Source: a virus
Length of the DNA stretch: 53,698 bases
Virus record (IMG/VR): IMGVR_UViG_3300028925_012628
Strand: one strand, 5' to 3'
This document shows, piece by piece, positions 1 through 53,698 of the stretch (positions are counted from its first letter, which is position 1; every line of letters starts with the position of its first letter). The translations under genes were made by a program, and so were the position numbers. The notes below the pieces were generated by a model, which was not told the origin of the DNA, searched no databases, and saw only the letters and a program-made list of their open reading frames with translations.

Positions 1-99
1 TACATTACCAATGGTTTGTCCTGTACCAGTATCTACATTACCAATGGTTTGTCCTGTACCAGTATCTACATTACCAATGGTTTGTCCTGTACCAGTATC
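1..99. repeat. Three perfect copies of a 33-bp coding tandem repeat, TACATTACCAATGGTTTGTCCTGTACCAGTATC (minus-strand peptide DTGTGQTIGNV)
   Basis: Direct reading: units at 1-33, 34-66 and 67-99 are identical. Confidence 0.95.
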
Positions 100-3000
100 A
101 GATTGGAAGAGGCCCAAGTCAGAAAACTCTTGTGCCTTTTGATTGAAAAACAAGTCCTGAGATGATTGCCCTCGTTGTGTTAATATTTTGTTCAGTTCCT
201 CAATGCCAGTATTTCCTCCTGTTATCGATGATCCCTGTTCTATTAGAGATACAATCTCTTGCCTACGGGCAGGAGTTACTGTTGTATGACGTTCACTACC
301 TGGAGTTGTAACTTGCGTACTGCCCTGGGTAGTGCCTTGAGTTGTGCCCTGAGTACTATCTTGAGTTGTACCCTGAGTGCTGCCTTGGGTTATACCCGGA
401 GTTGTAATTTGAGTAGTGCCTTGGGTTCTGCCCTGAGTAGTACCTTGAGTAGTACCTGAGATATCAGTTCTTCCTGTTATGACTCCTTGACTGAAGTCCT
501 CCAGTGCGCTGGTATTTGATATACGATTTTGGTTGGCCTCACCTTCAGCTTGTTCTTGTACATCATTCACTGCCCGATTTACTGCATCAAAATTAGGCTT
601 GTCCTGAACATTTGATTTCTGATTATCCTTCTCTTTCTGGGCTTCGAATTGTTCGCTACCGCCGTCGCTCCAAGGAACCATGTCTTTGGCAGCACCGCCA
701 TTCAGAAATCTGTCACGTTTGGTCTGCTGTACCCCTAACCATGGAGTCTTTTTCCCATTAACATTCCAGTAAGTTTGGGAATAATCTTTCTTTGCTCGTT
801 CCTCTTTGAGGGTTTTGGTAGAATCAACATGCCTTCTATCTCCGCCAGTAGCCTGCCAATATTCCATACTCGCTTTCTGCTCTGGTGATAACACCTTATC
901 TCTAAGCTCCTCCAGTGATGGTCTTTCTGTTTCTTTTTCAGGCGGCTTCAAATATTCTGATAGTTTATCAAAATCATCCCAACTGCCCATTGCCTTGCTA
1001 CCTCTACTGAGCCTCTCGGACATCAGCTGGCGGTCCTTCTGATCTATGACCCCATCACTATTAACATCCATCTTGAAGTCAGGTGTAGCTCCTCCCTGTC
1101 CTAGTCGCATTGCCTTCTGTTCATCCGTTTGCTCAGAGTCTGGAATGCCACCGGCGTTCGTATCATCTAAGATACCATCCCTATCCTTATCCTGATCAAA
1201 GTAGCTACCATCTGGGTTCAGTCTACGGGCAACATTATTCCCATCTTTATCTTTAACTTGCCGCTGTCTTGCGTCTTCTGAAGTCCCTCCCTGTGAATCA
1301 GCGTATTGTATCTCATCGTCAGCTTTAACATCTGTTACTGGAGTTGTAACCGCAGATGTCGTAACAGCAGGTGACGCATTATTCTGCGATTCTCGGATAT
1401 AGTCTTCTTGGGCGGTTCTGCTGCCTGGAGTTTTTAGATCCGGTCTAGTCTCTACGTCAGCTGCTGCCAACTCTTCGTTGGCTTTATTGAGATTCCGCAT
1501 CTTCAGTTGATTCTGCTGGTCTTGAATAGCTTCTGCTGAATCCTCTTCTTTTTCTTCAGGGGTACGTTTATCATGTTCTTTTGTAAACAACAACGCATCT
1601 AGGGCATCTACCCTGCCATCACCACTTAAGTCAAACCGCTTCATCTCATCGGGGGTTAGCGAGCTCACATATTTCAACTCTTCTGGCAAATCCTTATCCC
1701 AGTCTTCATCGCCTGCGTAGAAAGCACGCTCCGCATCTGGGTTGGCTTTGAGCCACTCAAAATACTTGTCCATACGAACAGCATTTTCTGACCCTGGTCT
1801 GTTTATAGGATAAATCTGCTCTTTTTCAATTGCATCAACTAAAATCTGATAGTCATCCTTGCCTAATTTCATTGTGGATGTTCCCGTTGTAGATGTTTCC
1901 GATGTGTCTTGACCATAAGCAGCCGCTCCTAATGCCTGTGAACCCTGTACTTTTTCAGCAGGATTTTCAGCACGATTTTCAACAGGACTTACCGCACGAT
2001 TTTCAGCGACAGCTGCCACGGCTTTAACCGCAATATCAGCCGGTGATACAGATGCTACCGCAGCATCATCCGATGATACAGCAGTTTCACTTTCAATTTT
2101 TTCTTTAGCTTCCTTGTATTCAGCAGCGTCCTTTTTATTTCGGAACATCCTCGTGTCCATACCCGGTGCTCTAATTAAAGCACCACTCAGACCCCTTTCA
2201 GTAAACGCAAAACCCGCCCATCTGACTTCTGGGTCCCCTCTGTCTAGCTCCCCACGGGCTTCTTTCCCGAGAATGCTATCAATACGGTCATAAAGAAATT
2301 TTCTCTCTTCTGGGGTAGGCACAAACAACTCACCCGATGATACTTTTCTTCCACTTGGAAGATCGAATGTTCCACCTTTTTCACCCGGAGCTCTAACCAT
2401 TACCCTAGTAGCCTTCATTTCAGGCGTATCATTTGCGCCCATCTCCGTCCACCTGCCCTCGGCTTCATTCCAAGCACTTCCGGTGAGGTCCAACCTTGAG
2501 TCTTTTCTCGTTCGGAGCAAGGCTTTTTCTCTTTCGCTCCAGCCTTCTATACTAAAGCCCGTTCGCTCTGACCATTTATCAGCATATTCATCTATTTCCT
2601 TCTTGGTATCCGCTGCGACCTCCTCGGGTGTCCTATCACGCAGCCGTTGCCGCTCGGCCTGAATCGCCGCCAGTCGTTTTCTTTCTGTCTCTGCTTTCTC
2701 TATACCCTCGGGGCTTGCTTCAAACAGCATTTTCTCGGCGGACCTTTGGGTGTATGCTTTTTCATCCCTTGCTAGAGCGTCAGCCTTAACATCTGCCCTT
2801 GTCCCCTTGTAAGCGTGAAGTTTGCCACGGATATTTTCCTGTGGGCCATCATACACCGCCCACTTTTCTTCGGCATCAGCACTACCGCCAGACCACATCT
2901 TATCGGAATCTTTCTGTGCCAACTCCTTTCTAAACCTCTCGTGCATTCGTTCGTCATATGGATTATCTTCGTAGTAGGTTTTTGCCTCGTCATCAGAGAT

Positions 3001-4944
3001 CGTACCATCGCCATTCAAGTCAGGCTTTTGTAGTGAGTCTTCTCTCCGCTTGCGTTGTCTGTCGTCCAGATAAGAGTCATCAGTGTAGGTTCTACTATCT
3101 TTATAAGGGGCAACTTTGTCAACGTAATCTTCCCACGTTTTTTCTTTTGTTTCCTCGCCATAAGAAGCATTACCCAACGACAAACGATCGTCCGCTTCTT
3201 TTTCTTTAGCAAACACAGCAACCGCTTTGTCTTTTTTTTCCGCAACAACCTGACGTTCCTCATTTACCTCTTTCAGGTCTGGAAACATTTTGTCGTATTC
3301 TTTTGGGTCACCTACTGTTTCACCAGCCTCCGCTCGGTCTTTGCTAATTCCCTTAGCATCCGTTATCATCTCTTTAACTTCGTCCAACGTAACGGTTGCG
3401 TTTTCCCCTTTATCTTTTGCTAGTTGCCCCGCAATCATCAGGGTGACCAAGCCCCTAGAATTCATATGCTGTTGTGCAAGTGCAACTTGCGGGTCAACAT
3501 AACCCCTCTTTCCACCCCGTTTCTCCCATCTTTCAAAACCTGCGACAGCCTCCTCTTTAGCCCTATCTTGGACCAGTACCCTACCCACACCGCAGAGGTC
3601 GAGGAGCTTTTCTATAGGTATACGACCGGGAGTTTGGTCTCCCAGCGTTCTATTGCCTTGAGGCTGTGATTTAGATTCTTCGATCATGGCATTCATGACC
3701 ATCTCTTCAATTTTATTCGCAAACCAATCAGCTGACTTATCGTTTAAGTCTGCGTCAGTCCACTGAATAGGTCCGCCTCCACCCTTACCCTCCTCGGATA
3801 ATGGTGAGCTTCGATAGACAGCCTCTTGGTCGGCTCGCAGCATGTCTTTGAGTCTATTTGAATCGACAGTCATGTCATTTTTGGCATCTCTTTCCGCCCG
3901 TTCCTTATCGGTCAGTTGGAACCTACCTTTATAATATCCTCCTTTCATCTTAGCTATCTGCTCTGGTGTCTTGCCGTACTTGGCCCACTTTTCTGGTTCA
4001 TTTCTGTGGAGTGTATACTCACCAATCTTGTTTAGACGGTGTTCGTCTCCCTCTCTATTTTTGTCAAGATACAATGATTGTGTGTTGAGCAGACGTTCAA
4101 ATTCTGCTCTGTGCTTCTCCTTGCTCGCATCCCATTGCGTTTTTGTTTCTCCTTTCCAAGCCTTATTGAGCTCGGGAGCATCAGCGAGAACCTTGTCCCA
4201 GTGTGCCTTGACTTCATCTCTCTCTTTTTGGTCTTTGGGTAAAAACAGTTTGCCATCTGCCCCATAAACCATTACTCTGGCTCGAAGCATCTCTTCGGTG
4301 CCACCGGATTCCATATCCCATGTGCCAGACTCTTCATCCCATGCCTTCCCCTGAAGATCCCACCTCTTTGCCTTTTCAATAGCTCGCCTACTAAAGTCGT
4401 TTTTTCTCTTCCGTTCCTCATCGTAAGCAATAACTTCGGGCTGCTTATTGTACTTATCTTCGTCAAGGACATGTTTTTCTCCATCCCAGGAGGTAAATTC
4501 CTTCTTCAGCTTATGTAAACGAGAGCGAATTTTCGCCGAAGCCTCCTTCATGCCTGCGGGGGTTTTGTCATACGCAGCTTGCTTTGCGTCTTTTTCTTTT
4601 TGAGCGACTGCATCTCTCTCCGCTTGTTGCTTCTTAAAGAGAGCTTCCCGCTTTTCTGCTTCTACTCTCGCTTCTGCTCTCGCTGCTTTTTCCGCTGGAG
4701 TTTCGGCGGCACGCTGCTTCTTCAATGCCTCTTCCCTTCTCGCCTTTTCCTCAGCCTTCTTTTTTGCAGCAGCAGCACGCTTACGCAGTTTCACCTCGGC
4801 AGGGGAAGCGTATTTCTTTTTCGCTTCTGCTTCAGCGAGCATTGCCTCCCACTTCTCGTCGCCGTACTTTTCCCTTTGTTTTTTCTGAAACTCGGCAATT
4901 CTCTTTTTCTCAAGATATTGTTTGGTTTCATATGCAGTCGGCAT
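1..4944 (-). CDS. Giant repeat-rich virion-associated protein, 5' part (1648 codons). The ORF leaves the window at position 1 and resumes at 53698; about 2079 aa in total.
   Basis: The ATG at 4944-4942 sits 1 nt after the TAG of the upstream gene (TAGAATG). My hand translation of the minus strand (MPTAYETKQYLEKKRIAEFQ...) stays open to position 1. The track lists no minus-strand ORF in this frame (the listed ones are all in another frame), as expected for an ORF with no stop inside the window. The codon phase at position 1 matches the phase at 53698. Confidence 0.8.
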   Translation of the reverse strand, partial: MPTAYETKQYLEKKRIAEFQKKQREKYGDEKWEAMLAEAEAKKKYASPAEVKLRKRAAAAKKKAEEKARREEALKKQRAAETPAEKAARAEARVEAEKREALFKKQQAERDAVAQKEKDAKQAAYDKTPAGMKEASAKIRSRLHKLKKEFTSWDGEKHVLDEDKYNKQPEVIAYDEERKRKNDFSRRAIEKAKRWDLQGKAWDEESGTWDMESGGTEEMLRARVMVYGADGKLFLPKDQKERDEVKAHWDKVLADAPELNKAWKGETKTQWDASKEKHRAEFERLLNTQSLYLDKNREGDEHRLNKIGEYTLHRNEPEKWAKYGKTPEQIAKMKGGYYKGRFQLTDKERAERDAKNDMTVDSNRLKDMLRADQEAVYRSSPLSEEGKGGGGPIQWTDADLNDKSADWFANKIEEMVMNAMIEESKSQPQGNRTLGDQTPGRIPIEKLLDLCGVGRVLVQDRAKEEAVAGFERWEKRGGKRGYVDPQVALAQQHMNSRGLVTLMIAGQLAKDKGENATVTLDEVKEMITDAKGISKDRAEAGETVGDPKEYDKMFPDLKEVNEERQVVAEKKDKAVAVFAKEKEADDRLSLGNASYGEETKEKTWEDYVDKVAPYKDSRTYTDDSYLDDRQRKRREDSLQKPDLNGDGTISDDEAKTYYEDNPYDERMHERFRKELAQKDSDKMWSGGSADAEEKWAVYDGPQENIRGKLHAYKGTRADVKADALARDEKAYTQRSAEKMLFEASPEGIEKAETERKRLAAIQAERQRLRDRTPEEVAADTKKEIDEYADKWSERTGFSIEGWSEREKALLRTRKDSRLDLTGSAWNEAEGRWTEMGANDTPEMKATRVMVRAPGEKGGTFDLPSGRKVSSGELFVPTPEERKFLYDRIDSILGKEARGELDRGDPEVRWAGFAFTERGLSGALIRAPGMDTRMFRNKKDAAEYKEAKEKIESETAVSSDDAAVASVSPADIAVKAVAAVAENRAVSPVENRAENPAEKVQGSQALGAAAYGQDTSETSTTGTSTMKLGKDDYQILVDAIEKEQIYPINRPGSENAVRMDKYFEWLKANPDAERAFYAGDEDWDKDLPEELKYVSSLTPDEMKRFDLSGDGRVDALDALLFTKEHDKRTPEEKEEDSAEAIQDQQNQLKMRNLNKANEELAAADVETRPDLKTPGSRTAQEDYIRESQNNASPAVTTSAVTTPVTDVKADDEIQYADSQGGTSEDARQRQVKDKDGNNVARRLNPDGSYFDQDKDRDGILDDTNAGGIPDSEQTDEQKAMRLGQGGATPDFKMDVNSDGVIDQKDRQLMSERLSRGSKAMGSWDDFDKLSEYLKPPEKETERPSLEELRDKVLSPEQKASMEYWQATGGDRRHVDSTKTLKEERAKKDYSQTYWNVNGKKTPWLGVQQTKRDRFLNGGAAKDMVPWSDGGSEQFEAQKEKDNQKSNVQDKPNFDAVNRAVNDVQEQAEGEANQNRISNTSALEDFSQGVITGRTDISGTTQGTTQGRTQGTTQITTPGITQGSTQGTTQDSTQGTTQGTTQGSTQVTTPGSERHTTVTPARRQEIVSLIEQGSSITGGNTGIEELNKILTQRGQSSQDLFFNQKAQEFSDLGLFQSDTGTGQTIGNVDTGTGQTIGNVDTGTGQTIGNV
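295..456 (-). repeat. About 13 copies of a 12-bp coding repeat (tetrapeptide TQGx: GTTQGTTQGRTQGTTQITTPGITQGSTQGTTQDSTQGTTQGTTQGSTQVTTPGS)
   Basis: Hand translation of the minus strand; imperfect 12-nt periodicity in CTGGGTAGTGCC-type units. Confidence 0.85.
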
Positions 4945-4945
4945 T

Positions 4946-5815
4946 CTAAACTCCCAGTCCTGATTTTGAATTGTTTAGTCGTTCTAACATCGCTACATAC
5001 CTATAGGGCGGAATTGACACAGCCGATGCCGCACCGCCTCCGCCTACCTTTTGCACAGATGTCAAATATCCAGGCCCAGGATCATTAGTTCCTGTTTCAT
5101 CGGATTGTACTACTGGTAAACTATCTCCGGTGCCTTCTCGCATAGAACCCACGGCAAGTGGATGCATATGAGCGTGGCTAGTATCGCTAACAACCACTTG
5201 TAAATCCAACGCTCCGGTCTCTCCTCCGCCGGTATCGCCAGATTCTGTGGTCGTTGTCCATTGTCGCAGAAACTTGTCTCTAAGGTCTACACCGGAACCA
5301 CCATTTGCAACGGAGTTCTCAGTGCCATTCATAACTGCCCAACCACCAGTTCCTTTGTCTGCATTAGCGTCAATTCGTATAGAACCAACTCGGAAATCTC
5401 CATACCCTGTTGCCACCTTGAGACCATCTAATGTCTCAAAAAATAGGATTACATCTCCACTAGATATGTTTGGATCTTCGCCTACGCCCGCAGGTAAGTA
5501 TATGGCTATATCGCTACGGCCCGTGGTGCCATTGCCTAAGTAGTCATCCGCTTCCTTGCACATGACTGTTGCCATTAAGCCGCCATTGCTAGGGTATGTG
5601 GTGCTATCGGGATTATAGTCCCAATTGCTTTGAGCTACTGCCCAACGTCCAGACTGAGCCTGTGACGTAGTAACATATCCAGTGAGGTTGACACTTCCCT
5701 CGTGGTGCAATTCTATATTCGGATTACAGAAGATATCCCGAAATACCCTTACCTGTTCAGAGGACATTCCAGCAACCAACAATCTATCGAACTGTGATGC
5801 ATGTTTTGAATACAC
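4946..5815 (-). CDS. Tail fibre-like protein (tail-collar-like C-terminus); function tentative
   Basis: Track ORF, 289 aa, tightly coupled to both neighbours. The C-terminal SHAHMHPL ... IPPYRYVAMLERL resembles tail-collar/fibre C-termini. It sits among tail genes. Confidence 0.55.
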   Translation of the reverse strand: MYSKHASQFDRLLVAGMSSEQVRVFRDIFCNPNIELHHEGSVNLTGYVTTSQAQSGRWAVAQSNWDYNPDSTTYPSNGGLMATVMCKEADDYLGNGTTGRSDIAIYLPAGVGEDPNISSGDVILFFETLDGLKVATGYGDFRVGSIRIDANADKGTGGWAVMNGTENSVANGGSGVDLRDKFLRQWTTTTESGDTGGGETGALDLQVVVSDTSHAHMHPLAVGSMREGTGDSLPVVQSDETGTNDPGPGYLTSVQKVGGGGAASAVSIPPYRYVAMLERLNNSKSGLGV

Positions 5816-8304
5816 TATTCAACGCCCTCGATGTTTATGCTCTGTATTTGCTGTGCATCATCCCCTGCAAACCCCCGCAACTCAACGGACACTCGATGGT
5901 CGCCGTGGGACATACTGTTATACTGCCCGTCAAACCTGAACTTCTCATGTCCAGATGCATTCTCTAGATCATTACGGGTAGCCTGAAGGAAGATAACTGC
6001 ATCTTCCTGATTGCTTTCTTGTATTTCAATAGCATCACCCAGCTTCTGTGACATCCCATTAGTGATCGGGGTAGTACTGTTGTTGTAATAGAAACGAACA
6101 TCTATCCGACTATCCCCTGTCGTTGGCTTGAACTTCATTGAAATCTCACGTTTAGAGCGGCCTTCAATACTTGGCAACCCAAACGCATTAGACTTCCAAC
6201 TCCAAACAACTGCTCCCACAACATACTTGCTAGTTGTATCTGGGTTTGTTGTCCACGCTGCTACTGTCAATCGTGTTGCCGTTCTCGCCGTAATCGTTCT
6301 CCGCTGACCCTTACCAGTTCCTTCGTAAATATAAACAGAAGCCCCAACGACACTGCCACCAAAGGCGGCGGCAGAATCCACAAGGGTAGTGCTACTGCTA
6401 CTGCTAGCTGTTCCTGTTGTCTCAGAGGTAACAATGTCAGTTGTCCCGCTATCCGCCAAATGAACACTTGAATTCTCTGCCCCCAATGCTAAGCGACTCT
6501 CACCATTTATCTGAATAACGGACGTTGAGCTTATCTTTTGGGGATAATGATAGATGTCCCAAGTCTGACGGCGTAAGTTATATACCAAAGCTCGTGTTGG
6601 TATCGTCTCTGCGTCGCCCACAAACGACACAAAGTAGTACACCCTCGTCTTAGCTCTATCAACAGCGACATGAAACTTATCTGACTTCGTAAAGTCTATC
6701 TTGTCCCCATCCCCATCCTTGCGGAATAAATCATGTATCTTTTCACCGATTGGCTGTGAAGAACCACTGAATGCGTATGGACCGCTGTCATCCATCATGT
6801 AAGCCACGTTCTCGTGTAATGCCCAACAATAGTGATTAAACGCTCCCCTGTCCTCTACGTAGCGCACAGAGCCGTCTATCGTAGGTTTGACTGAGTAGTT
6901 GAACGCATACTTGCTTCTCTTGCCTAGGAAAAACAGCGTGTTATTAAGCGGCATAGCACCAATAATATCGTCATTGTCTCCGGTTGACTCCTGTATTGTG
7001 AACACATTGACCGTTGGTACGCTCTCAGGTTCGTCCGGTTCACTGAACATTACCTGTCGTCGCTTGCTAGCTTCGATACGTATCGTGTAAGTCTTGCTAC
7101 TAGCTGTTGTTGCTGCCGCTGTTTCTAATGTCAGGCTTGTTCCACTAGCTACTGCTGTTATCTGGATTGGTGCTACCTCTCCATCAATGTAGACATAGCG
7201 TCCAATCATAGTGTCTACCCAGTCAGTTCCAGTTCCAGTTAGCGTGGTTGACCCGTTGGTGGCCACCGTACCTCGATTATATTGCACCGACCCAACATAG
7301 AAGTACCTATTTTGCAGCTGAACAACAATCGGTCTGTCATTCGGAGGTGGATTAAAGCGTCGTGCTACTAGAGTATTGTCCGCTGGAGGATTGCTCAATA
7401 TCAAAAGAACATCGTCTACACCGCTGCTGTTAAGAACAGCGTCATCAACCTCGTCACTAAAAGTAACACTTCCGCCATATGCGCTCGTTGCAACTCTGTA
7501 CATTGCATTTGTTACACCAGCCGTACTACGGAATAACTGGAACTTATGCTGTGCCCTAGCTTCTGTCGTTGTAGACAAGGAAGACCATGCGAAGAAATCG
7601 TTTTCATTTGCGGTCACCGTTCTCACAGCTGTAAGACTACTTGGTATCCCCGTTGCTGTGTTATCGAGATAGCGATATCCGAATGTGTATACACCAGCCG
7701 TTGCTCCATATCCCTCTGCTGACCATGTACCACCCGATCCATAGGAACCATCAAACGATGTTCCCGTCAAAGTAAACACTGTGCCTGATACACTCTCTAC
7801 AGTAAACACCGACCCGTTTAGGTCATTAGACATTGCACCAGTGCCAACCACATTTCCAATTCGAACCTTGTCACCATTAGACAAAGAGTTGCCAGAAGTG
7901 ATTCTGTACTTGCCACCATTATTTGCGACACCTGTAATCGAGTTTCCCTTAACTCCACCCGTAGGAGCAGCAGCGACAATTGTTGGTGCAGCAGCAGGGG
8001 CCGTGATGCCTAGGTCTTCTACGGCAGCCGTAATTCCGTCCCATCGAAATCCTCTATCTATTCCATTGATGCCTATTAAGTCGCCAAACCTAGTCTTCAC
8101 AAATGACATACGCTGAAATGTATGGTACGCACTAGCTGAGATAGTTGAAGTAGCATCGAAAGATGCGGGTTGTATGCCACCACGTATTTTTAGTTTGCCA
8201 TTGAATGTTGTGCTGACATTGGTCTGTGTTACCGCTCCACCATGCGGTACATCGCTAGCATCCCCGTCTGATATTTGACCTAAGAAATCTCTTATATTTG
8301 CCAT
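5815..8304 (-). CDS. Large tail structural protein (nozzle / tail tubular B candidate)
   Basis: Track ORF, 829 aa, Gly/Thr/Ser-rich and probably beta-rich. It lies between the adaptor-like gene and the fibre-like gene. Assigned by size and position only. Confidence 0.5.
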   Translation of the reverse strand: MANIRDFLGQISDGDASDVPHGGAVTQTNVSTTFNGKLKIRGGIQPASFDATSTISASAYHTFQRMSFVKTRFGDLIGINGIDRGFRWDGITAAVEDLGITAPAAAPTIVAAAPTGGVKGNSITGVANNGGKYRITSGNSLSNGDKVRIGNVVGTGAMSNDLNGSVFTVESVSGTVFTLTGTSFDGSYGSGGTWSAEGYGATAGVYTFGYRYLDNTATGIPSSLTAVRTVTANENDFFAWSSLSTTTEARAQHKFQLFRSTAGVTNAMYRVATSAYGGSVTFSDEVDDAVLNSSGVDDVLLILSNPPADNTLVARRFNPPPNDRPIVVQLQNRYFYVGSVQYNRGTVATNGSTTLTGTGTDWVDTMIGRYVYIDGEVAPIQITAVASGTSLTLETAAATTASSKTYTIRIEASKRRQVMFSEPDEPESVPTVNVFTIQESTGDNDDIIGAMPLNNTLFFLGKRSKYAFNYSVKPTIDGSVRYVEDRGAFNHYCWALHENVAYMMDDSGPYAFSGSSQPIGEKIHDLFRKDGDGDKIDFTKSDKFHVAVDRAKTRVYYFVSFVGDAETIPTRALVYNLRRQTWDIYHYPQKISSTSVIQINGESRLALGAENSSVHLADSGTTDIVTSETTGTASSSSSTTLVDSAAAFGGSVVGASVYIYEGTGKGQRRTITARTATRLTVAAWTTNPDTTSKYVVGAVVWSWKSNAFGLPSIEGRSKREISMKFKPTTGDSRIDVRFYYNNSTTPITNGMSQKLGDAIEIQESNQEDAVIFLQATRNDLENASGHEKFRFDGQYNSMSHGDHRVSVELRGFAGDDAQQIQSINIEGVE

Positions 8305-9477: not shown

Positions 9478-9491
9478 TGTTTTATCCTAAG

Positions 9492-9884
9492 CTATTGGCC
9501 CATCGGAGGCATTTGTGGTCCACCCATTGGCGGGCCTTGTGGTCCCATCGGAGGCATTCCGGGCATTCCGCCCATTGGAGGCATTGATGGAGGAGGAGGT
9601 AGCGGCTGACCAACAGGCCCACCCATTGGCGGCATCATTGCCATCTGGGCAGATTCAGTAGCCGCACCTTTAGTCAAGCTATCTATTTGCTCTTTTTGCT
9701 TTTCCAAAATCGTACGAAGCGTAGTCATTTTTTCCATGACCTCTTCTGGGTTAGGTCCGCCTGGTTGAGGCATACCCTGTGGTGGCATACCCTGTGGTGG
9801 TCCGCCCATTGGTGGCATTCCACCTTGTGGTGGTCCCTGTGGAGGTCCTTGTGGAGGCCCCATTCCTTCCATTCCCATTGACAT
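9492..9884 (-). CDS. Met/Pro/Gly-rich low-complexity protein with a central helical segment
   Basis: Track ORF, 130 aa. PPQG and MPPMGG repeats flank EEVMEKMTTLRTILEKQKEQIDSL. Confidence 0.6.
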   Translation of the reverse strand: MSMGMEGMGPPQGPPQGPPQGGMPPMGGPPQGMPPQGMPQPGGPNPEEVMEKMTTLRTILEKQKEQIDSLTKGAATESAQMAMMPPMGGPVGQPLPPPPSMPPMGGMPGMPPMGPQGPPMGGPQMPPMGQ

Positions 9885-20570: not shown

Positions 20571-20575
20571 AAAAA

Positions 20576-20710
20576 TCCGCTTTAATCCGGTTTAGTCCGC
20601 TTTAATCCGCTTTGTCACAAATACACCTATAAACAGGGCATTTTGAAACATCCGGTTTAATCCGGTTTAATCCGGTTTGTTCCGGTTTGTTCCGGTTTGT
20701 TCCGGTTTGC
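20576..20710. repeat. Iteron array: 10 copies of the 10-bp unit TCCG(G/C)TTT(A/G)N, in blocks of 4 (20576-20615) and 6 (20651-20710) separated by 35 bp
   Basis: Direct reading: TCCGCTTTAA TCCGGTTTAG TCCGCTTTAA TCCGCTTTGT ... TCCGGTTTAA x2, TCCGGTTTGT x3, TCCGGTTTGC. Confidence 0.9.
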
Positions 20711-45899: not shown

Positions 45900-48251
45900 T
45901 TATTGACCGCCCCCGTATCCCCCAGTACCCATTCCGGCTGTGTTATTGGGAGCAGGGTTAAATCCTGGAGCCATGTATTGACTTCTATTTTGCAACGCCT
46001 CTATCTCTGCAATATTTGGAGGCATTTCGCCATTACCAGTCATTAATGAATTAAAAAACTCAGTTACCATTTTCCAAACTACAGGGTCTATTGATTCCGG
46101 TGGGGTGCTAAGCATAACATTACCATAACGAGGCATTCCTAGATTCAGCTTTGAACCTAGTGCTATCAATCCATCTGCACTGCCTAGTTTTCTGCTACCT
46201 CGTATTAAAGCTATTACATTCCGCGCTGCCGCAATCATACCTACACCAGTGGCATCAAAATCTAATGCATCCTGAACAGGTGATAACATACCCATCTCTT
46301 GCAATTGTGCATTAGCCTCATCCAGCGGAATAGTATCGTCAGTATTCAACTCTGGCGTGCCTTCAGTGGTCGTGGTTTCCTCTCCCACTTCAGCTGTTGA
46401 CTCTTCTGCCATCACATCTGTTAGCTCTTCAGTGGTAGGTTCACCACCTGCCTCCAATTCGTCAATGTTAGTTTCTATATCTAGAATTTCTTGTTCTATT
46501 AAATCAATCTGATCCTGGATCTTTCTTTGTTTATCTTGACTCGGCTCTCCATTTTTCTTTGCCAGCAATGCGAGGTGAGCATTCTTCAGATCAGCCAGCT
46601 TAAGTCTTCCATCTACAAGTGCATCTTGCTTCGCTTCTGCTGCATCTTCACGATCCCCTTTCCTCTCGCTGCTTCTTCTATTTGCGTCCCCCTCTGCTTT
46701 ATCTACTTCTGCCTTAGACGCTGCTGCCTTGGCATCTATCTCACCCTTGGCTTCCAGAAGTGCTAAGTCTTTCTGGTGATCATTGAGCGTGTTGTCAGAA
46801 TCAATCTTAGCCTCTGCCTCTGCCTTAGCCTTTACTGCATCAGCGGCTATCTGAGCTATCCTGACCGACGCAGCCTCATCACCATAAGCAAATGGGTTCT
46901 CTGGATTACGCCAGCCTTTGTCAATTTTTCTATTTCTAGCCAGCAATCCCTTGCGTCGTTCCTTTTTGCTGATTCGTTTTCCTGCTGTAGACTCTGCTCT
47001 GCCTGCTTGACTCTCAGATATGTACTGATCCTGCTCAGAATAAGGTTCGTCATCAGCTGCCCTTGCGTATCCACCCTTAGCCTGTCGCATACGTACCTTG
47101 CCGGATGACTCCTTGTCTCGTCCCTGTTGTTCACGAGCACCAGGTTTATCTCTGAAAATCACTCTCGTTATATTGCCATTCTCGTCCTTCACTTCTATAC
47201 GGTCCTTGAGCGATTTGTCATACAGACCACCACCAACAGTACCCTCTGTAGTTTCGGTAACTGGAATGGAGTCATTGCCTGGCTCGTGACCTGCGTCAAT
47301 CAACGCTCTGTTCTTGTCTTCATTCTCTTTATTGAGACGACGCTGCGTATCAGCCATCTCATCATTCATGGTTCCCTTCGTGCGTTTGTCCATCTCAACA
47401 TCCATTGCTGCATTTCTAATGGCTTCCTCAGCATGGTACTTCTGAACCCACGGGGAATCTTCTGGAGATATTGGACCACCATCACGTCTGCCGGAATCAA
47501 GGTTATCAATGCGTCTTTGTGCCTCGTCGGCATCCATCTGGTCCTTGGGATTTTCATAGCCAGCACTGTTTGGATTTGCCAAGCGTTCCTCAGAAGCTGC
47601 ATCATCCTCCTCAATAATTTCTGTAGTGCGTTCATTGAATTCTTTTTGTGTCTCAGTATGGGCATCAAATTTTTCATCGAAGCGAGCACCATCAACAGCC
47701 ATCTCTCCTGCGATTCTTTCCTCTTCCTCTTCCATCCCCATAAAACCTTTGCGGCCTTCTTCTAGGGCTTCGCTGCTAGCCTTGCCAGTATAGTATTCCA
47801 TCTCTTGCTCTGATGGCATTTCGGGCTCACCACCATGTTCAGGCTCGACAGTTGTATCCACTCCCCTGTTTAACTCTTCTTCTTCTTTAGTTAGTTGACG
47901 GACGGTTTCAGGAACTGGTTCGTCCCCCCTCCTAAGATCTGTCTCGATGGCAGATGATTCAACTTCAGGCATAACCGGTGGGGCAATACCTGCTTCTGCG
48001 ATGTTGGCAGGCGGTTGCACTGCGCTTAACATCATAGATTCCATAGATTGCCCTGTTGGATCTTCCATTGCAAAACGATCATCGGGTTTCCGAACTTGCG
48101 TTTCACGAAGCAGACCACCGCCGGGACCAGCCGATGCCTCAGCAGTAGCTAACGCCCTAGCATCCTCTTGAGAGATTCTTCCCCCACTCGCTGAACGGAT
48201 TTCTCTAACTCGTCGGTCTATTTGTTGTCGTGGTTGTTCGTATGTAGCCAT
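45900..48251 (-). CDS. Acidic 783-aa virion/ejection-type protein
   Basis: Track ORF 45900..48263. The ATG at 48251 overlaps the upstream TAA (TAATG). Long D/E/K-rich and coiled regions. Confidence 0.65.
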   Translation of the reverse strand: MATYEQPRQQIDRRVREIRSASGGRISQEDARALATAEASAGPGGGLLRETQVRKPDDRFAMEDPTGQSMESMMLSAVQPPANIAEAGIAPPVMPEVESSAIETDLRRGDEPVPETVRQLTKEEEELNRGVDTTVEPEHGGEPEMPSEQEMEYYTGKASSEALEEGRKGFMGMEEEEERIAGEMAVDGARFDEKFDAHTETQKEFNERTTEIIEEDDAASEERLANPNSAGYENPKDQMDADEAQRRIDNLDSGRRDGGPISPEDSPWVQKYHAEEAIRNAAMDVEMDKRTKGTMNDEMADTQRRLNKENEDKNRALIDAGHEPGNDSIPVTETTEGTVGGGLYDKSLKDRIEVKDENGNITRVIFRDKPGAREQQGRDKESSGKVRMRQAKGGYARAADDEPYSEQDQYISESQAGRAESTAGKRISKKERRKGLLARNRKIDKGWRNPENPFAYGDEAASVRIAQIAADAVKAKAEAEAKIDSDNTLNDHQKDLALLEAKGEIDAKAAASKAEVDKAEGDANRRSSERKGDREDAAEAKQDALVDGRLKLADLKNAHLALLAKKNGEPSQDKQRKIQDQIDLIEQEILDIETNIDELEAGGEPTTEELTDVMAEESTAEVGEETTTTEGTPELNTDDTIPLDEANAQLQEMGMLSPVQDALDFDATGVGMIAAARNVIALIRGSRKLGSADGLIALGSKLNLGMPRYGNVMLSTPPESIDPVVWKMVTEFFNSLMTGNGEMPPNIAEIEALQNRSQYMAPGFNPAPNNTAGMGTGGYGGGQ

Positions 48252-51200
48252 TATGCATTCCAACTAGAGGCGTTTGCGTTGTACATTGAATTAAGTAATT
48301 GTCTGTCTACTGCTTCCCGAGCTAACCGGTCATCAGCGTCAGCATAAAAATCTTGTGCTGTCATGCCAGCTTCTTGCAATCCAAGTTGATGCGCCAGTTC
48401 TCTGCGATTACGTACTTGATCTGCATGTTGCATTGCATACTGCCATGGTATATCAATCTCTGCTTTGCGTGAACCCAACAATGATTGTACCAAAGGAGAG
48501 ATTTTTCTCTGTGACTCTGTTCCTGTATCAATACTCATTCCCTGCTGAGCCTGCAAACCAGTACCACCTACGGCCTGATTGTACTCGCCCCAGTTCTGAG
48601 CTACCTGATTGTTCACCAGTGCCTGTATCTGTGACGGCTCTACACCACGACGACGCATGTCTGCTTTAGTTAGTCCACCAGCATTACTAACTAACATGTT
48701 ACCACCATAGTCAATATTACCATCACTGTCTTGCATAACGTCTAAGGGCACGCCTGAGAGCTCAGGAGCCAAATCGTAATCATCACGATCACGCCTTTCT
48801 ATCTTCTTATTCTTGCTAAGATCAATTGCATCACCACTCTCTGGTGGGAGGCTGATTTCTGGGCTAGATAAATCTTTACCATCACCGAGGTAAATTGTTT
48901 CCTCATCCTCCGTGGCCGGTGGACGGATAACCCCTGGAGTAGTTAGATTTGTACCACCATCGAGGTGTCTTCTTTCTTCTTCCCCAACAAGTTGATCTTG
49001 TCCTCTTTCAGGAAGTTCACCGCCCACTGATGCTGATCTACTTGCTGCTGCCTGCCTTGTCTGTGCCCAGTCTTCTGTGTCAGCAGGTGCACTAGTATTA
49101 GTCTTACCAAACTCTGCACCCCTGTAGACATACCCTCCACCGGACGTATCCCAGTTATCAGGATTGTTTAGGTCTTCGGGGCTAGCTGAGCCTGCATCTG
49201 CTTCCGGTGCTTGAACAGTCCTATTGTCACCCCCGAAACCTTCTATCTCATTCCAATATCCGATTTCTCCATGCCCATCGCCTTCATCATCATAAGCAGC
49301 ATCGCCTACTTCAGAGAACTTATCTGCTGGGTCAGGGGTATATGGCTGAAGACCACCTTCGTTGGCCATGTCACCGCTCCATCCAGCATCCCAGCTCCAC
49401 TGCTTACCATTCTCATCCTCAAATATTTTAAGGGTTGTTTCCGAGCGGGAGCCAGGGTATTGAATTTTTTCCCCTACCTCTTTCATTCCTTCAGTGCCAG
49501 GAACCTTCTCTGCTGCTAGGTTACCACCACCTTCGTCCGCTGGTCCTTCTTTACCAACCTCAGTCCATTCTGCTTTGCCTGGCCAGTTATCGTTTGCCCA
49601 TACGCTACGCTCAAAGCGACGACCATCTGCTCCTTCAAAAGTCGTTACTTTATGGCCTGCATACATCGGGCCACTGCCTCTGTTACTCTCTTCATCGACC
49701 TGACGCATCTTCAACCCGTAGGCTTTGTCAATTCCTAACTCTTCCTGTATACGTTTGGAACCTTCAACATCTCTTGTGTTTAAGTCTCCGTGGAACATGC
49801 TCCATGCAGCTATCCCTTCGTCTTTCTTTTTTGTTTCCTCAAGCATCTCAGGCGTTGGGTCTACCGATACTACACGTCCGTTCTCGTCCGCAAACTCTCC
49901 ATACGTAGGGATGCCAGGCTTGCCGATGTCAGACATTTTGTAGTAGTACTTGCCATCCTTCTTACCACCAATATTAACCTGCCCAAACCTACGTCTACCG
50001 TCAACCAGTCTACGTCTTTCTGCTGCTTCTGCTTTTGCCTTGGCCCTTGCATCTTCTCTCGGCCTTACCTTCGGTTCATCACTAACTTCACCGGCATCTA
50101 CCTTATCCTTGAATTCTTCAAGTGCTGGCTTGTCCTTATTTTCCTGCCATCCAGCAGGAGGATCAATAAACATCACATTCCAATTACCTGACCCCTTGGG
50201 GTACTCCGATGCAAAACCACCGTATTCACCCTCTTTCCTGTCAGAGTCTTTCTTGTACTGTTTTCCATTGACAGTAACCATATCTGGCTTAACTGCTGGC
50301 GTGACCATTGGTGGTCCAACTGCACGAGGGTCGGGGTCTGTACCATAGTTGCGACCTGGTTCTAGTTCCGTCTTCTCTCCTGCATCATCTGCTGGCTTAT
50401 CCTGTCCTTCTTTATCCCATTCATCGAACGGAGGAGAATTACCATTATTCTCTTTAACGTATTTGTCTATCCTAGCCTTCCCATATTGCTTGTGGTATTC
50501 CTCTTTTCTGTCAGGACCGACTGACCCCCAGCCTTCCCAAGATGGCTCAAACTTTGGCTTCACTGGATCTGGTGTATCGTCCGATTGGTCTGGTAGAGGC
50601 TGTCCAGGGTTCTGCTCTCGCCACTCGGCTTCTAGGCCAGAATCCATCGGACTACCAGCTGATCCACCACTGAATGAATCACCATGTACTGGTGGCTGTT
50701 CCTGTTCTAGGTTACCACCGCCATCATCCATAACCCTGTTGTTCACTGGATCAAAACCTGGAGGTGTAGCTATGGTAGGAGATTCACTACCGGAAGGAGC
50801 CACCTCTTCGTTGAACTGGCTGGTTGTAGGCAAGCTGTTGGGGCCCGCTACTTGGGCCTCCGTAAAATCCGAGGGGGAACCTCCAGACAAGGCATTACTT
50901 AAGGCATCTCCGCCAGCCTGTGCATCTCCGCCAGCCGGTGCTTGTCCGCCAGCAAATGAGCTTCTCCCTACAAGATTATTTTTGCTTTTGTCCGCAGCAC
51001 TATCAATTATTTGTTGTTGAATATCATTGCCCAGCTCAGGAGTGAGATCTCCCTGTCCATAAGGCAGACCAGTGGCATCCCCCATTAGTTCAAGTGCTTC
51101 ATCATGAAAATTCGTCATGTCATTATACGAAAACCCGCCCATACGAGTGTCTGGGGCCCATTCAAATGGGTCCCATGTGTTGGTGTCTTTCCCTTGAGGT

Positions 51201-52303
51201 ATTTGGCCAGGATTACCGGGACGATCACCAACTTCACCTTGTTGCTTTCCAAGAATTGGACCGCCAGGGAATACTTCAGGCTGTTGCATCGGGGCTTGCC
51301 CTTCCGGTCCGAAGCCCTGTCCGAAGGCTGACGCTACAGGGTCGTTCTGATATGGAGCCATATCAGGCTGACCGTAATCTTGCTGCGTCTCCATTGTGTC
51401 AGGACCCATGTCAATAGTCGGGTTATCAAACTGACTGTAATTTTGCTCGCTCCACTCTGGGCCATAATTCGCATCATCAAGGGGAGTTGCAGTGGGAGTT
51501 GGAGTGGGACTTCCTCCGCCCATTCCTTCCATGCCTCGCCAGCTACCGGCTCGGATAGGCCCTCTTCCTAGCTGGGAACCCATGCTGTTCATTCCAGAAA
51601 TGACAGGGTCTCCGCTCCATGGTGGCTGTGTTCCGCCTTCTGGACGGGGATATAGTTCAGGTGGATTCTGACCATACCAGTTGTGTGGCCGTCTTTGTCT
51701 CCCATCATCCATAACCAACTTTCGCCCATCACCATCTGTTGGCCAGTCTATGGGTTTATATGGGTACTGTTCCTGACCGCCAGGTCCAGCCATATCACCA
51801 GTTCCAGCGACCATTCCCATAGGATTGGCACCACCCATATCACCAGCTGCACCGCCGCTGTAATAAATGGGAGGCTGAATGTCACCTTCTCCAGCGACTT
51901 TATTAATGAAACCACGGTCTGGGTCAACAAAAGTCTCAGTAGAGGGTAGCTGGGGTGGATGTAGAGTTAATCTGTCTGCTCCAGTAGGCAGAGCGTTCAT
52001 GCTGCCCATACCAGCCAAGCCCGGTTGATTGCCCATGCCATCACTAAGACCCATTGCATTATTGCTATTAAATCCAGCGGCCAACTCACCAGCCCTAGTA
52101 TCTGCCTGTAGGATGGATTCTTCTTTCCTCGCATACTCGGCAGGATCAGTACCAAAGCCACCACCCGTGCCAAATGCATCCTTGAATGGATCGCCAGACT
52201 TCTTCTGGTTCTTCTGAGTGCCATTGTATGCACCTGGTCCATTACCGGCACGTTTTGGTTTCGTGGGATTTCCAGGGCCGTATTGGTTTGTGTTCTGTGG
52301 CAT
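48251..52303 (-). CDS. 1350-aa Gly/Pro/Asp/Trp-rich low-complexity virion/ejection-type protein
   Basis: Track ORF; starts 14 nt after the stop of the giant wrap-around ORF. Confidence 0.65.
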   Translation of the reverse strand: MPQNTNQYGPGNPTKPKRAGNGPGAYNGTQKNQKKSGDPFKDAFGTGGGFGTDPAEYARKEESILQADTRAGELAAGFNSNNAMGLSDGMGNQPGLAGMGSMNALPTGADRLTLHPPQLPSTETFVDPDRGFINKVAGEGDIQPPIYYSGGAAGDMGGANPMGMVAGTGDMAGPGGQEQYPYKPIDWPTDGDGRKLVMDDGRQRRPHNWYGQNPPELYPRPEGGTQPPWSGDPVISGMNSMGSQLGRGPIRAGSWRGMEGMGGGSPTPTPTATPLDDANYGPEWSEQNYSQFDNPTIDMGPDTMETQQDYGQPDMAPYQNDPVASAFGQGFGPEGQAPMQQPEVFPGGPILGKQQGEVGDRPGNPGQIPQGKDTNTWDPFEWAPDTRMGGFSYNDMTNFHDEALELMGDATGLPYGQGDLTPELGNDIQQQIIDSAADKSKNNLVGRSSFAGGQAPAGGDAQAGGDALSNALSGGSPSDFTEAQVAGPNSLPTTSQFNEEVAPSGSESPTIATPPGFDPVNNRVMDDGGGNLEQEQPPVHGDSFSGGSAGSPMDSGLEAEWREQNPGQPLPDQSDDTPDPVKPKFEPSWEGWGSVGPDRKEEYHKQYGKARIDKYVKENNGNSPPFDEWDKEGQDKPADDAGEKTELEPGRNYGTDPDPRAVGPPMVTPAVKPDMVTVNGKQYKKDSDRKEGEYGGFASEYPKGSGNWNVMFIDPPAGWQENKDKPALEEFKDKVDAGEVSDEPKVRPREDARAKAKAEAAERRRLVDGRRRFGQVNIGGKKDGKYYYKMSDIGKPGIPTYGEFADENGRVVSVDPTPEMLEETKKKDEGIAAWSMFHGDLNTRDVEGSKRIQEELGIDKAYGLKMRQVDEESNRGSGPMYAGHKVTTFEGADGRRFERSVWANDNWPGKAEWTEVGKEGPADEGGGNLAAEKVPGTEGMKEVGEKIQYPGSRSETTLKIFEDENGKQWSWDAGWSGDMANEGGLQPYTPDPADKFSEVGDAAYDDEGDGHGEIGYWNEIEGFGGDNRTVQAPEADAGSASPEDLNNPDNWDTSGGGYVYRGAEFGKTNTSAPADTEDWAQTRQAAASRSASVGGELPERGQDQLVGEEERRHLDGGTNLTTPGVIRPPATEDEETIYLGDGKDLSSPEISLPPESGDAIDLSKNKKIERRDRDDYDLAPELSGVPLDVMQDSDGNIDYGGNMLVSNAGGLTKADMRRRGVEPSQIQALVNNQVAQNWGEYNQAVGGTGLQAQQGMSIDTGTESQRKISPLVQSLLGSRKAEIDIPWQYAMQHADQVRNRRELAHQLGLQEAGMTAQDFYADADDRLAREAVDRQLLNSMYNANASSWNA

Positions 52304-52317
52304 CTTATAATCCTAAG

Positions 52318-53698
52318 TTAAGTGTTGTATTTTACTACGTCTGGTGTTTTTGCTGCAATCATCGGAGTCATCGAGGCTACCGTTGACTGGTCTAGTCCTT
52401 GCCGCAGATTGCGTTTCTTATTGCCTAAGTCATAAGCAAGTTTAGCTAGGTCTAGACCTTGTTTAGATGCTGCTGTTTTAGAAGCCATTTCATTTGCTTC
52501 AGCGGCTTGTCCCAAAGATGCCGCCATTGAAGCTGCCTCTGGGGCTGCTGCACCACGCATGGCATCTGCTATCTGACCCTGAAGTTCACCGGAAGCCGCT
52601 GGGGCATTTCCAAGTGCCGCTGCTACATCTGCGGATGAAGGAGCATTGATTCTTCCTGGCTGATCTCCAGCATTGGCAATCGCTCCACGCCCACCATCTC
52701 CAGGGGCTGCGTCTTGATAGCGACTGTATCCACCGGTGGTTGTATTGACATAGCCAACAGGACCCTTCAAGTCTGTATACAGACTCTTCCGTTGTTTCCC
52801 AAGCATTCCCATCAAACCGCCAAGTGCATTCCACTTGTCTTGATTAATAAGACGTTGCCCTGCTAATGCTTCTGACTTGCTGCGTGCTTCTCTAGCTGAC
52901 TTGTCAAATGCGGCCTGTTGGGCTCGAGCAGCTGCCTCACGCTCTGCGTTTATTCGCATCATCTCAATAGCGTCAGCCGTGGACATATGACCTTGTCCTT
53001 CGCCTCCTGGCTCTAGGTTACCTTGCCCAGCACCGCCACCAAAATCTATATTTATGTCCCCTATAGTTGCCTCACCACCTGTACCTGTACCTGTACCTGT
53101 ACCTGTACCACCTGTTGGATTTGATATTACGCCATCTGAACTCATGCTAGACCCAGGAGCCCATGGCCATGTTATTGTGCCATTGCCATCAACCACAGAC
53201 CCGCCTTCGTATGGTTCAGGTCCATATGTTCCATCAGGGCGTGGATATTGCCAACCATCGGGGCCCCATATTCGCCCGCCATTTTCAGGATCTCCCTCCC
53301 AGTCCGGTCTAGTATCTGGAATCTCACCTGGATCGCCAATATTACCATCATCATCGCCGGATTCTACATTCTCTTCTCCATATGGTGGAGTCGGCCCATA
53401 TGTTCCATCCGCTTGTAGATATTGCCAAATCTCTCCATCCCAATATCGGTCCGGGCTAGTATCTGGAATCTCACCTGGATCGCCAATATTACCATCGGTG
53501 CCGGATTCTACATTCTCTTCTACATCTTGGTCAGTCCAACTATCATCAACACCATAAGGTAGGCCTGTGGCCGGATCAATTCCTTCACGATCACCTGTAC
53601 CTGTACCAGTATCTACATTACCAATGGTTTGTCCTGTACCAGTATCTACATTACCAATGGTTTGTCCTGTACCAGTATCTACATTACCAATGGTTTGT
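52318..53698 (-). CDS. 3' part of the same giant ORF (stop codon at 52318-52320)
   Basis: Track ORF 52318..53196 starts at the first GTG, but the same frame is open up to 53698 (...GTGQTIGNVDTGTGTGDREGIDPATGLPYGVDD...). 53697-53196 is a multiple of 3. Confidence 0.8.
   Translation of the reverse strand, partial: QTIGNVDTGTGQTIGNVDTGTGQTIGNVDTGTGTGDREGIDPATGLPYGVDDSWTDQDVEENVESGTDGNIGDPGEIPDTSPDRYWDGEIWQYLQADGTYGPTPPYGEENVESGDDDGNIGDPGEIPDTRPDWEGDPENGGRIWGPDGWQYPRPDGTYGPEPYEGGSVVDGNGTITWPWAPGSSMSSDGVISNPTGGTGTGTGTGTGGEATIGDINIDFGGGAGQGNLEPGGEGQGHMSTADAIEMMRINAEREAAARAQQAAFDKSAREARSKSEALAGQRLINQDKWNALGGLMGMLGKQRKSLYTDLKGPVGYVNTTTGGYSRYQDAAPGDGGRGAIANAGDQPGRINAPSSADVAAALGNAPAASGELQGQIADAMRGAAAPEAASMAASLGQAAEANEMASKTAASKQGLDLAKLAYDLGNKKRNLRQGLDQSTVASMTPMIAAKTPDVVKYNT
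53077..53106 (-). repeat. (ACCTGT)x5 hexanucleotide repeat encoding a (GT)n dipeptide run inside the giant ORF
   Basis: Direct reading; the track peptide shows GGTGTGTGTGTGGE. Confidence 0.9.
53600..53698. repeat. Further copies of the same 33-bp unit. 53614..53698 (85 nt) is identical to 1..85, an assembly overlap that indicates a circular contig.
   Basis: Direct reading: units at 53614-53646 and 53647-53679, a 19-nt partial unit at 53680-53698, and a partial unit at 53600-53613 before them. Confidence 0.9.

Follow-up and report, generated by a model that had tools for sequence, protein, structure and literature searches.

A giant repeat-rich gene of a podovirus-like phage, probably split between the contig ends within its own 33-nt array

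The viral record IMGVR_UViG_3300028925_012628 of IMG/VR (53,698 nt, the whole stretch being called the window) represents a phage genome of ∼53.6 kb without tRNAs, in which the first 4.9 kb seem devoid of genes. The two ends of this window very probably join through an in-frame array of a 33-nt unit, and together form one minus-strand gene of 2046 + 11n codons, where n is the copy number of the array; this gene would be the expanded orthologue of a much shorter protein found in related phages. Its product, referred to as the giant protein, is a large, fast-evolving protein of the virion module of a podovirus-like phage, with no characterized family assigned. The wrap-around artefact that conceals the gene is itself ordinary; what is added here is a break inside a repeat array, the hyper-expansion of a protein and a block of genes without recognizable domains.

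At the head of the window, the ATG at 4944-4942 on the minus strand opens 1648 codons that reach base 1. The initial annotation had proposed this open frame; in-frame stops between 4944 and 1 were looked for and none is present. The nearest in-frame stop 5′ of the ATG lies at 4977-4975, and the ATG itself stands 1 nt past the stop of a 289-aa gene, preceded by a Shine-Dalgarno-like motif. Under a mononucleotide model, the probability that a frame of this length stays open by chance is ∼1e-54, and the remaining five frames contain 60-204 stops each. Codon-usage log-odds, trained on nine other genes of the window, are above zero in frame 0 and below zero in all other frames in six out of six 300-codon segments (aa 1-1800). 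At the opposite end, one minus-strand frame is open over 459 codons, from 53697 to the TAA at 52320-52318, as had been described for this phase from the 53698 side; the other two minus-strand frames meet stops within 4-5 codons. When 85 nt are trimmed and the ends joined, the two parts form a single open reading frame (ORF) of 2079 aa (1648 + 431 codons), while joining without trimming loses the frame (1652 aa). The parts concerned are the following.

1..4944, minus strand: head part of the giant gene, codons 1-1648 with the ATG at 4944-4942; no stop, coding signal in frame 0 only; contig L025 identical over 70-9596.
4951..4955, minus strand: ribosome-binding-like motif GGGAG, 6 nt 5′ of the ATG, read from the sequence.
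52318..53613, minus strand: tail part of the giant gene, 431 codons and the TAA at 52320-52318 if 85 nt are trimmed; untrimmed, the frame is open to 53697.
1..99, minus strand: junction repeat at the head end, three copies (100% matches in Tandem Repeats Finder, TRF).
53600..53698, minus strand: junction repeat at the tail end, 99 nt of array in a phase shifted by 19 nt; the end overlaps measure 19, 52 and 85 nt.

The apparent desert at 1-4944 arises because the ORF list of the window leaves out ORFs that run off an end. The gene had been reported as missing from this list, which holds for the head part; the tail is present as a truncated 292-aa ORF with a GTG start (52318-53196). ORF callers that are blind to circularity drop or truncate genes cut at a contig opening, and in this genome they lose the largest or second-largest gene.

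The nature of the ends sets a limit on what can be said of the length of the gene. Bases 1-99 and 53600-53698 each consist of exactly 99 nt of a perfect tandem array of the unit TACATTACCAATGGTTTGTCCTGTACCAGTATC, which encodes the 11 codons DTGTGQTIGNV; the other frames of the array contain stops. The array at the tail end is shifted in phase by 19 nt relative to that at the head end, and the presence of 99 nt of it at each end is the reason why the first and last 19, 52 and 85 nt of the window all match exactly. The 85-nt terminal overlap from which the initial annotation started does exist as an exact match, but it is the longest of three and a by-product of periodicity. Trims of 85, 52 and 19 nt all stay in frame and give 2079, 2090 and 2101 aa, respectively. 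Given this ambiguity, the length is best stated as 2046 + 11n codons, and the earlier figure of ∼2079 aa, although reproduced with the 85-nt trim, is a lower bound. A terminal-repeat trimmer that removed 85 nt would fix an arbitrary number of repeats.

Ninety-nine nucleotides of array at both ends have the look of a de Bruijn edge with k of ∼99, bounded by the vertices at which the array is entered and left. A graph of this kind would branch only if the array measured at least 132 nt, i.e. at least 146 nt in steps of 33, and an array of 113 nt, corresponding to the 85-nt trim, would have been resolved by the assembler. At least 3 copies, and probably 4 or more, are present; the assembly does not fix n. 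An independent assembly of the same phage at k = 31 (L025; Logan, SRR8206072) is 100% identical to positions 70-9596, its identity to the giant gene running through aa 1625, and ends 30 nt into the array. The 33-nt repeat evidently accounts for the breaking of assemblies at the junction. As in other wrap-around genes of linearized circular or permuted phage contigs, the gene is cut at the opening and the ends share identical sequence; the difference is that the break lies here inside the gene's own in-frame array, so that the opening point is not arbitrary. The terminal repeat thus derives from an internal tandem array and does not by itself indicate a cleanly closed circle.

The order of genes in relatives supports, at the level of sequence comparison, the adjacency of the two ends. 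Retrieval based on the portal protein yielded 24 related viral contigs with conserved gene order. One contig of 30.7 kb (L030, Logan ERR5037024) is collinear with the window from 14920 to 4963, from the terminase gene (TerL) through the 289-aa gene, with 84% nt identity. Past the 289-aa homologue it diverges over ∼800 nt, then matches the window again from 52941 to 52301 (81% identity) and continues into homologues of the 1350-, 787- and 2266-aa genes that follow the giant gene; its version of the giant-gene protein is present on at least 24 contigs. On a Tara scaffold (L026), a repeat-rich ORF begins 2 nt after the end of the 289-aa homologue (74% identity), and the C-terminal domain of the giant protein (76% identity to aa 1781-2078) is followed by the homologue of the 1350-aa gene; here the 289-aa homologue and the C-terminal domain lie ∼2 kb apart on a single scaffold. 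Since genes of the head end and of the tail end adjoin in both relatives, with order and strand preserved, the data agree with circular closure and support the explanation of the ORF desert as an artefact of the opening point of a circular or circularly permuted contig. The homologous gene on the Tara scaffold contains a 100-N assembly gap within a tandem PEVE repeat (L026:1424-1523), and given this gap P0001, which public data list as a 'complete' protein of 268 aa, is a truncated C-terminal piece.

It is highly improbable that the ends are not adjacent, the window then being a linear piece with two separate arrays, or one with an 85-nt physical terminal repeat, and the 2079-aa product a chimera. 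Such a situation would account for the lack of any assembly found to span the array, and it is consistent with a terminal overlap that stems from periodicity and not from a clean k-mer overlap; the agreement of frame across the array is in itself weak evidence, since both ends carry the 33-nt unit. Several searches likewise weigh against a joined gene: the junction flank gave 0 hits in an exact search of IMG/VR, the 33-nt unit gave 0 in an exact search of JGI metagenome contigs, a protein-based scan of metagenome contigs with the junction region found no spanning contig, and an exact look-up of a guessed partial tail product returned no record. Against non-adjacency, the 289-aa gene and the C-terminal domain occur in relatives in one gene or less than ∼2 kb apart, in the same order and strand; both half-ORFs read the array in its single open frame; and no plausible start for the tail half by itself is present close to the array, nor a stop in the head half. 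Exact-product look-ups of the 1350-aa protein and of P0008, a fragment discussed below, also returned no record.

By its position and its C-terminal ∼300 residues, the giant gene can be regarded with good confidence as the orthologue of a protein of ∼460-480 aa, from which it would differ by ∼1600 additional residues, a ∼4.5-fold increase. Homologues measure 459-479 aa in six relatives and at least ∼690 aa on the gapped Tara scaffold, compared with at least 2079 aa for the giant protein. A search with the last 253 aa, followed by a small profile, retrieved seven proteins (P0001-P0007), with alignment confined to the C-terminus.

P0007: 459 aa, 68% identity over aa 1766-2078 of the giant protein.
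P0001: 268 aa, truncated call on the gapped Tara scaffold, 75-78% identity.
P0002: fragment of 164 aa, 99% identity.
P0003: 271 aa, 46-54% identity in two segments.
P0004-P0006: 468-479 aa, 33% identity over aa ∼1917-2053 of the giant protein.
52321..53262, minus strand: conserved C-terminal domain, aa ∼1766-2079, the sole part common to all homologues.

A further contig (L028) shows 97% aa identity over giant aa 1795-2078. Every homologue that can be placed occupies one slot, which follows the 289/331-aa gene and precedes the next giant gene (L003, L026, L030, L031-33). Within the family as a whole (P0001-P0007, L003/L004/L026-L033), ∼135-300 aa can be aligned, with the invariant motifs GP.G..N ... 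RY.DA ... AG.QP ... NE.A ... GLD.A in a region rich in Ala and Gln. The C-terminal ∼300 residues are under purifying selection: the ratio of non-synonymous to synonymous substitution rates (dN/dS) of the domain against L030 is 0.18, compared with 0.06 and 0.09 for the neighbouring genes. An AlphaFold2 (AF2) model of the domain consists of two helices of ∼65-70 residues around a small beta hairpin (GPVGYVNTTTGGYSRYQDA), with a mean predicted local distance difference test (pLDDT) score of 46.9, and a Foldseek comparison of this poor model with the PDB gave 0 matches.

The rest of the protein is not recovered in this way. A word-based homology search with the whole protein gave no match, as low-complexity words swamped it, and the N-terminal 477 aa found none in IMG/VR. 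A tape-measure protein was considered and rejected: the giant protein matches no tape-measure (TMP) family, long-tail genes are absent, and the homologues measure just ∼460 aa. A protein ∼4.5 times the size of its orthologue in a relative that is 84% identical in nucleotide sequence over the flanking genes illustrates the range over which virion-module proteins can grow.

The surroundings of the gene bear on its function. The genome is laid out as a minus-strand late block and a plus-strand block; the latter encodes a GP88-family protein, a helix-turn-helix (HTH) protein, a PD-(D/E)XK nuclease and an SF2 helicase. The late block runs from a scaffold-like Gln-rich protein through the major capsid protein (phrog_9953), a 197-aa protein, a small zinc-ribbon protein, TerL (Terminase_6N, phrog_2), the portal (weak P22_portal, phrog_156) and proteins of 179, 130 and 390 aa to those of 829 and 289 aa, and ends with the giant gene and the genes for 1350, 787 and 2266 aa. 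The 829-aa protein has weak PHROG matches to phrog_3287 ('virion structural') and phrog_1591 ('tail fiber'). The giant gene belongs to the late structural operon and is tightly coupled to both neighbours.

4946..5815, minus strand: the 289-aa gene upstream, which relatives also carry in conserved form, with its stop 1 nt ahead of the giant ATG.
48251..52303, minus strand: the gene downstream, for a 1350-aa orphan with predicted disorder; 14 nt separate its start from the stop of the giant gene.

Together with the 1350-, 787- and 2266-aa genes, the giant gene forms a block of 6482 codons or ∼36% of the genome (39066-52303 on the minus strand plus the giant gene). This block has no meaningful match in Pfam, PHROGs, NCBIfam or PDB sequences, apart from a partial Dockerin_1 match in the giant protein. 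NCBIfam gives for the latter a sub-threshold, low-complexity match to FliH, and searches of PDB sequences with the 829-, 390- and 2266-aa proteins, with giant aa 141-1340 and with the C-terminal profile found nothing meaningful.

In podoviruses of Gram-negative hosts, the genes of ejection proteins cluster directly after the tail genes and are fast-evolving and variable in size; the first member, gp14-like, has ∼180-240 aa with predicted membrane helices, and in phages with P22-like portals the ejection proteins are not organized as a core stack (PMC8954989). Since four consecutive orphan genes hold here what would be the position of the ejection cluster, the most likely role of the giant protein, although a tentative one, is that of an ejection (internal or pilot) protein packaged in the virion and encoded first among the four genes that follow the putative tail genes. 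Assembly with the virion would depend on the C-terminal domain, and the N-terminal part would be a passenger under little structural constraint. The disorder predicted for three of the four block proteins would suit passage through the portal and the tail channel. By charge-hydropathy, the predicted-disordered share of 100-aa segments is 81% in the giant protein, 90% in the 1350-aa protein and 86% in the 787-aa protein, versus 14% in the 2266-aa protein, which by this prediction looks folded.

The resemblance to the ejection proteins of T7 (gp14-gp15-gp16) and P22 (gp7-gp20-gp16) lies in the co-orientation of the genes after putative tail genes, in fast evolution and in variable size. Podovirus ejection proteins are conformationally plastic, and three of the four proteins here are predicted to be largely disordered; the long Gln-rich C-terminal tail of the portal might in addition correspond to the barrel of P22-like portals. 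The differences concern number and size, with four genes instead of three, a first member of 459-2079 aa instead of ∼180-240, and an extreme scale (6482 codons, 36% of the genome).

Several observations weigh against an ejection protein. No similarity to characterized ejection proteins is seen by sequence, profile or fold (PHROGs, Pfam, PDB profile, Foldseek), and hhalign against T7 gp14 gives a probability of 0.4%, i.e. no similarity. The size does not fit a gp14-like protein, either in the relatives (459-479 aa) or in the giant (at least 2079 aa). The four co-oriented genes follow tail genes that are putative, the 390- and 829-aa proteins being taken as adaptor and nozzle from position and weak PHROG matches. 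Both AF2 models, of the C-terminal domain and of an N-terminal module, are of low confidence (pLDDT 47 and 50), which leaves a helical anchor weakly supported. Finally, calcium-binding-type loops here and collagen-like Gly-Pro-Ser runs in homologues, which match tail-fibre PHROGs, favour an external protein. As to membrane helices, no Kyte-Doolittle segment of the giant protein reaches 1.6, a weak test, as T7 gp14-16 also remain below this value.

Evidence from the remaining ∼1750 aa outside the C-terminal domain bears on these possibilities. This region is charged, rich in repeats and mostly predicted to be disordered, and the N-terminal parts of the homologues are mutually unrelated between lineages. 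Those of P0004-6 and L003 contain runs of GPSGPT that resemble collagen, tracts of DGDGDG or poly-E and the motif DSDGDGIPD; that of the Tara relative L026 has PEVE repeats, and P0007 carries a different sequence again. In the giant protein, the following elements are distinguished.

4225..4938, minus strand: module copy 1, aa 3-240, with a self-BLAST match to aa 656-867.
2344..2979, minus strand: module copy 2, aa 656-867, internal duplicate of copy 1.
2986..3021, minus strand: calcium-binding-type loop DxNxDG, aa 642-653 (DLNGDGTISDDE), from a regular-expression scan.
1597..1632, minus strand: DxSxDG loop, aa 1105-1116, from the same scan; it lies within the best Pfam Dockerin_1 stretch.
1033..1191, minus strand: two DxDxDG-type loops, aa 1252-1263 and 1293-1304, from the same scan.
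297..457, minus strand: 12-nt degenerate repeat encoding (T/S)TQG, ∼13 copies, aa ∼1500-1560, from TRF and a repeat search.
53219..53536, minus strand: duplication of ∼147 nt (48-49 aa), ENVESG..GNIGDPGEIPDT.PD ... W.Y...DGTYGP.P, repeat families D2-D4; one stretch of 48 nt is 98% identical.
53077..53109, minus strand: ACCTGT x5.5, encoding (GT)n dipeptides where the conserved region begins, from TRF.

The different ages of these repeats point to ongoing growth by slippage and duplication. Each copy of the module comprises a charged segment rich in Lys, Glu and Ala, followed by the motif R.DL.G..WDEE.G.W ... ARVMV.G.DGKLFLP..EER ... HWDK; in the AF2 model of this module (pLDDT 50), helices alone are interpretable. 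The N-terminal part, with its duplicated module, tandem repeats and four calcium-binding-type loops, would be a replaceable and expandable passenger that grew via duplication and replication slippage and differs even among close relatives.

Outside this genome, such an N-terminus is seldom met in public data. An exhaustive phmmer search with giant aa 141-1340 against 1.84 billion cluster representatives gave 4 hits (P0008-P0011). P0008 is a 152-aa fragment with 73% identity to giant aa 178-327; in P0009, the first 45 residues are nearly identical to the giant N-terminus and the rest is 36-40% identical to aa 1-255 or 817-1016. Both keep the WDEE/HWDK motif of the module, and the contig L034 places the P0009-type N-terminus directly after a 295-aa homologue of the 289-aa protein. 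The expanded type of N-terminus is thus present in at least two other populations, but rare in public data. P0010 and P0011 were rejected as homologues, their matches being limited to dockerin-type calcium-binding repeats. The reading of P0009 as a complete short form of 330 aa was also rejected, given that its contig ends in a fold-back artefact. In this contig (L034:2184-2277, JGI 3300023216), the 5′ region of the gene recurs as its reverse complement in the last 69-93 nt, which has produced a false stop and a false 'complete 330-aa' protein in public protein collections. Comparison of giant aa 1-50 with L034:1202-1351 gives proportions of synonymous and non-synonymous differences of 0.11 (pS) and 0.03 (pN), a far closer similarity than that of the flanking genes (∼79% nt identity), which suggests that the 5′ end of the giant gene was recently exchanged between lineages.

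The four loops explain the only Pfam hit of the giant protein. Dockerin_1 (PF00404) is matched with E = 8e-8 and a summed score of 32.8 bits against a cut-off of 22.9 bits; the best stretch (aa 1095-1121) covers profile positions 27-53 of 57, and taken singly none of the stretches passes. This match results from four isolated D-x-[DNS]-x-[DNS]-G loops. The likeness to type I dockerins is in the loops themselves (D-x-[DNS]-x-[DNS]-G-x-[IV]); in the giant protein they are isolated and hundreds of residues apart, and the paired 22-residue duplication of dockerins is lacking. By their sequence they would be calcium-binding-type loops; they are not a dockerin module.

To our knowledge, neither calcium-binding loops nor tandem repeats have been described for the ejection proteins of T7 or P22. 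These features would fit an external fibre, whisker or adhesin, whose C-terminal domain would dock on the tail or capsid and whose N-terminal part would point outward for ligand binding aided by Ca2+; an appendage of this sort is the main alternative, but rather unlikely. In its favour are the four DxDxDG-type loops with the Dockerin_1 match, the linker-like repeats rich in Thr, Gln and Gly, and the homologues with GPSGPT runs (tail-fibre PHROG matches) and the DSDGDGIPD motif. Moreover, the variable part is swapped in the manner of a cassette between close relatives, as is typical for host-range genes, and the operon has no other obvious fibre gene. However, the polarity of conservation is reversed: fibres normally have a conserved N-terminus that anchors them and a C-terminus that varies, whereas it is the C-terminus that is conserved here. 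The dockerin match is half a profile without a single passing stretch, and the composition resembles that of the two disordered orphans that follow, and not that of folded beta-rich fibres. Low-complexity repeats and cassette-like variation are shared with collagen-like or repeat tail fibres of phages, and the L003 homologue matches tail-fibre PHROGs; these matches stem only from Gly-Pro-Ser runs of the homologues, and the giant protein has no Gly-X-Y repeats and no tail-fibre PHROG match.

The charge of the variable region raises another possibility, that of a packaged cargo or anti-defence protein, in which the C-terminus would target the capsid or the ejection path and an acidic, disordered passenger would act in the host after ejection, for example as a decoy, a DNA mimic or a binder of the envelope. 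This function is improbable. Strongly acidic stretches (net charge of -31 over aa 1656-1800), DGDGDG, poly-E or PEVE runs in homologues, and the fast turnover of the variable region among close relatives speak for it, as does a distant relative that holds a protein with a PT-HINT domain, known from polymorphic toxin systems, in the corresponding slot. On the other hand, searches of Pfam, PHROGs and NCBIfam revealed no known domain of an effector or of anti-defence; the idea rests on composition and turnover. In the distant relative (L042:10001-11122, IMGVR_UViG_3300030106_006235), the 291-aa homologue is followed by a Gly-rich ORF of 310 aa and one of 373 aa; in the latter, PEPEPP repeats occur together with a Hint domain (PT-HINT E = 5e-8, Hint_2 E = 1e-6, both passing the cut-offs).

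Within the preferred role of an ejection protein, the variable part may itself be functional, and not tolerated filler, and tuned by its length or repeat number, for example as a disordered tether or ruler that can extend, binds Ca2+ and is the first to be ejected; this proposal is speculative and, on present data, unlikely to be right. If true, such a tether, together with the next two disordered giants, could allow a short-tailed phage to span a host envelope of unusual thickness or width, rapid variation of length and specificity in phage populations would come from in-frame arrays and the exchange of cassettes, and the protein would represent a new class of hyper-expandable ejection protein. 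More generally, if the block does encode ejection proteins, the lineage would be a useful test case for the amount of disordered polypeptide that podoviruses are able to package and pass through the tail.

The phage itself is probably marine and probably a podovirus, with a portal that weakly resembles that of P22; its relatives originate from metagenomes, those of Tara among them. Its lineage is uncultivated, judging from searches of 50,697 GenBank phage records, in which the major capsid protein had no match and TerL a single match with 24% identity. Relatives of TerL with 36-49% identity occur on contigs of metagenome-assembled genomes (MAGs) assigned to Gemmatimonadetes, Chitinophagales, Planctomycetales and Chloroflexota (L035-L040). 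One of them (L040, PNKZ01000014.1, 148 kb, from a Pirellula sp. MAG) shares the order capsid-TerL-portal; this suggests a prophage and is no more than a hint as to the host.

Some further features of the genome are as follows. The C-terminus of the portal (10655-10910, minus strand, aa ∼640-722), as read from the translation, is a poly-Gln, heptad-like tail of ∼85 residues that may be a P22-like C-terminal barrel. In the plus-strand block, the last ORF (37116-38747), an orphan of 543 aa, contains a 114-nt tandem duplication (38121-38335, plus strand; 1.9 copies, 80% identity); this ORF has no family match and could be a structural or fibre gene. Two intergenic arrays of 10-nt tandem repeats, at 20574-20613 (AATCCGCTTT x4) and 20650-20709 (ATCCGGTTTG x6), adjoin the 3′ side of a 422-aa exonuclease-like gene (20723-21991, minus strand), before the next minus-strand ORF; the arrays at 20574-20709 may be iteron-like or regulatory. 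Between the portal-side genes and the 390-aa gene, the 130-aa ORF (9492-9884, minus strand) consists almost entirely of Pro/Gly/Met/Gln repeats (MGPPQGPPQG...) and is partly conserved in L001, with 66% identity over 56 aa.

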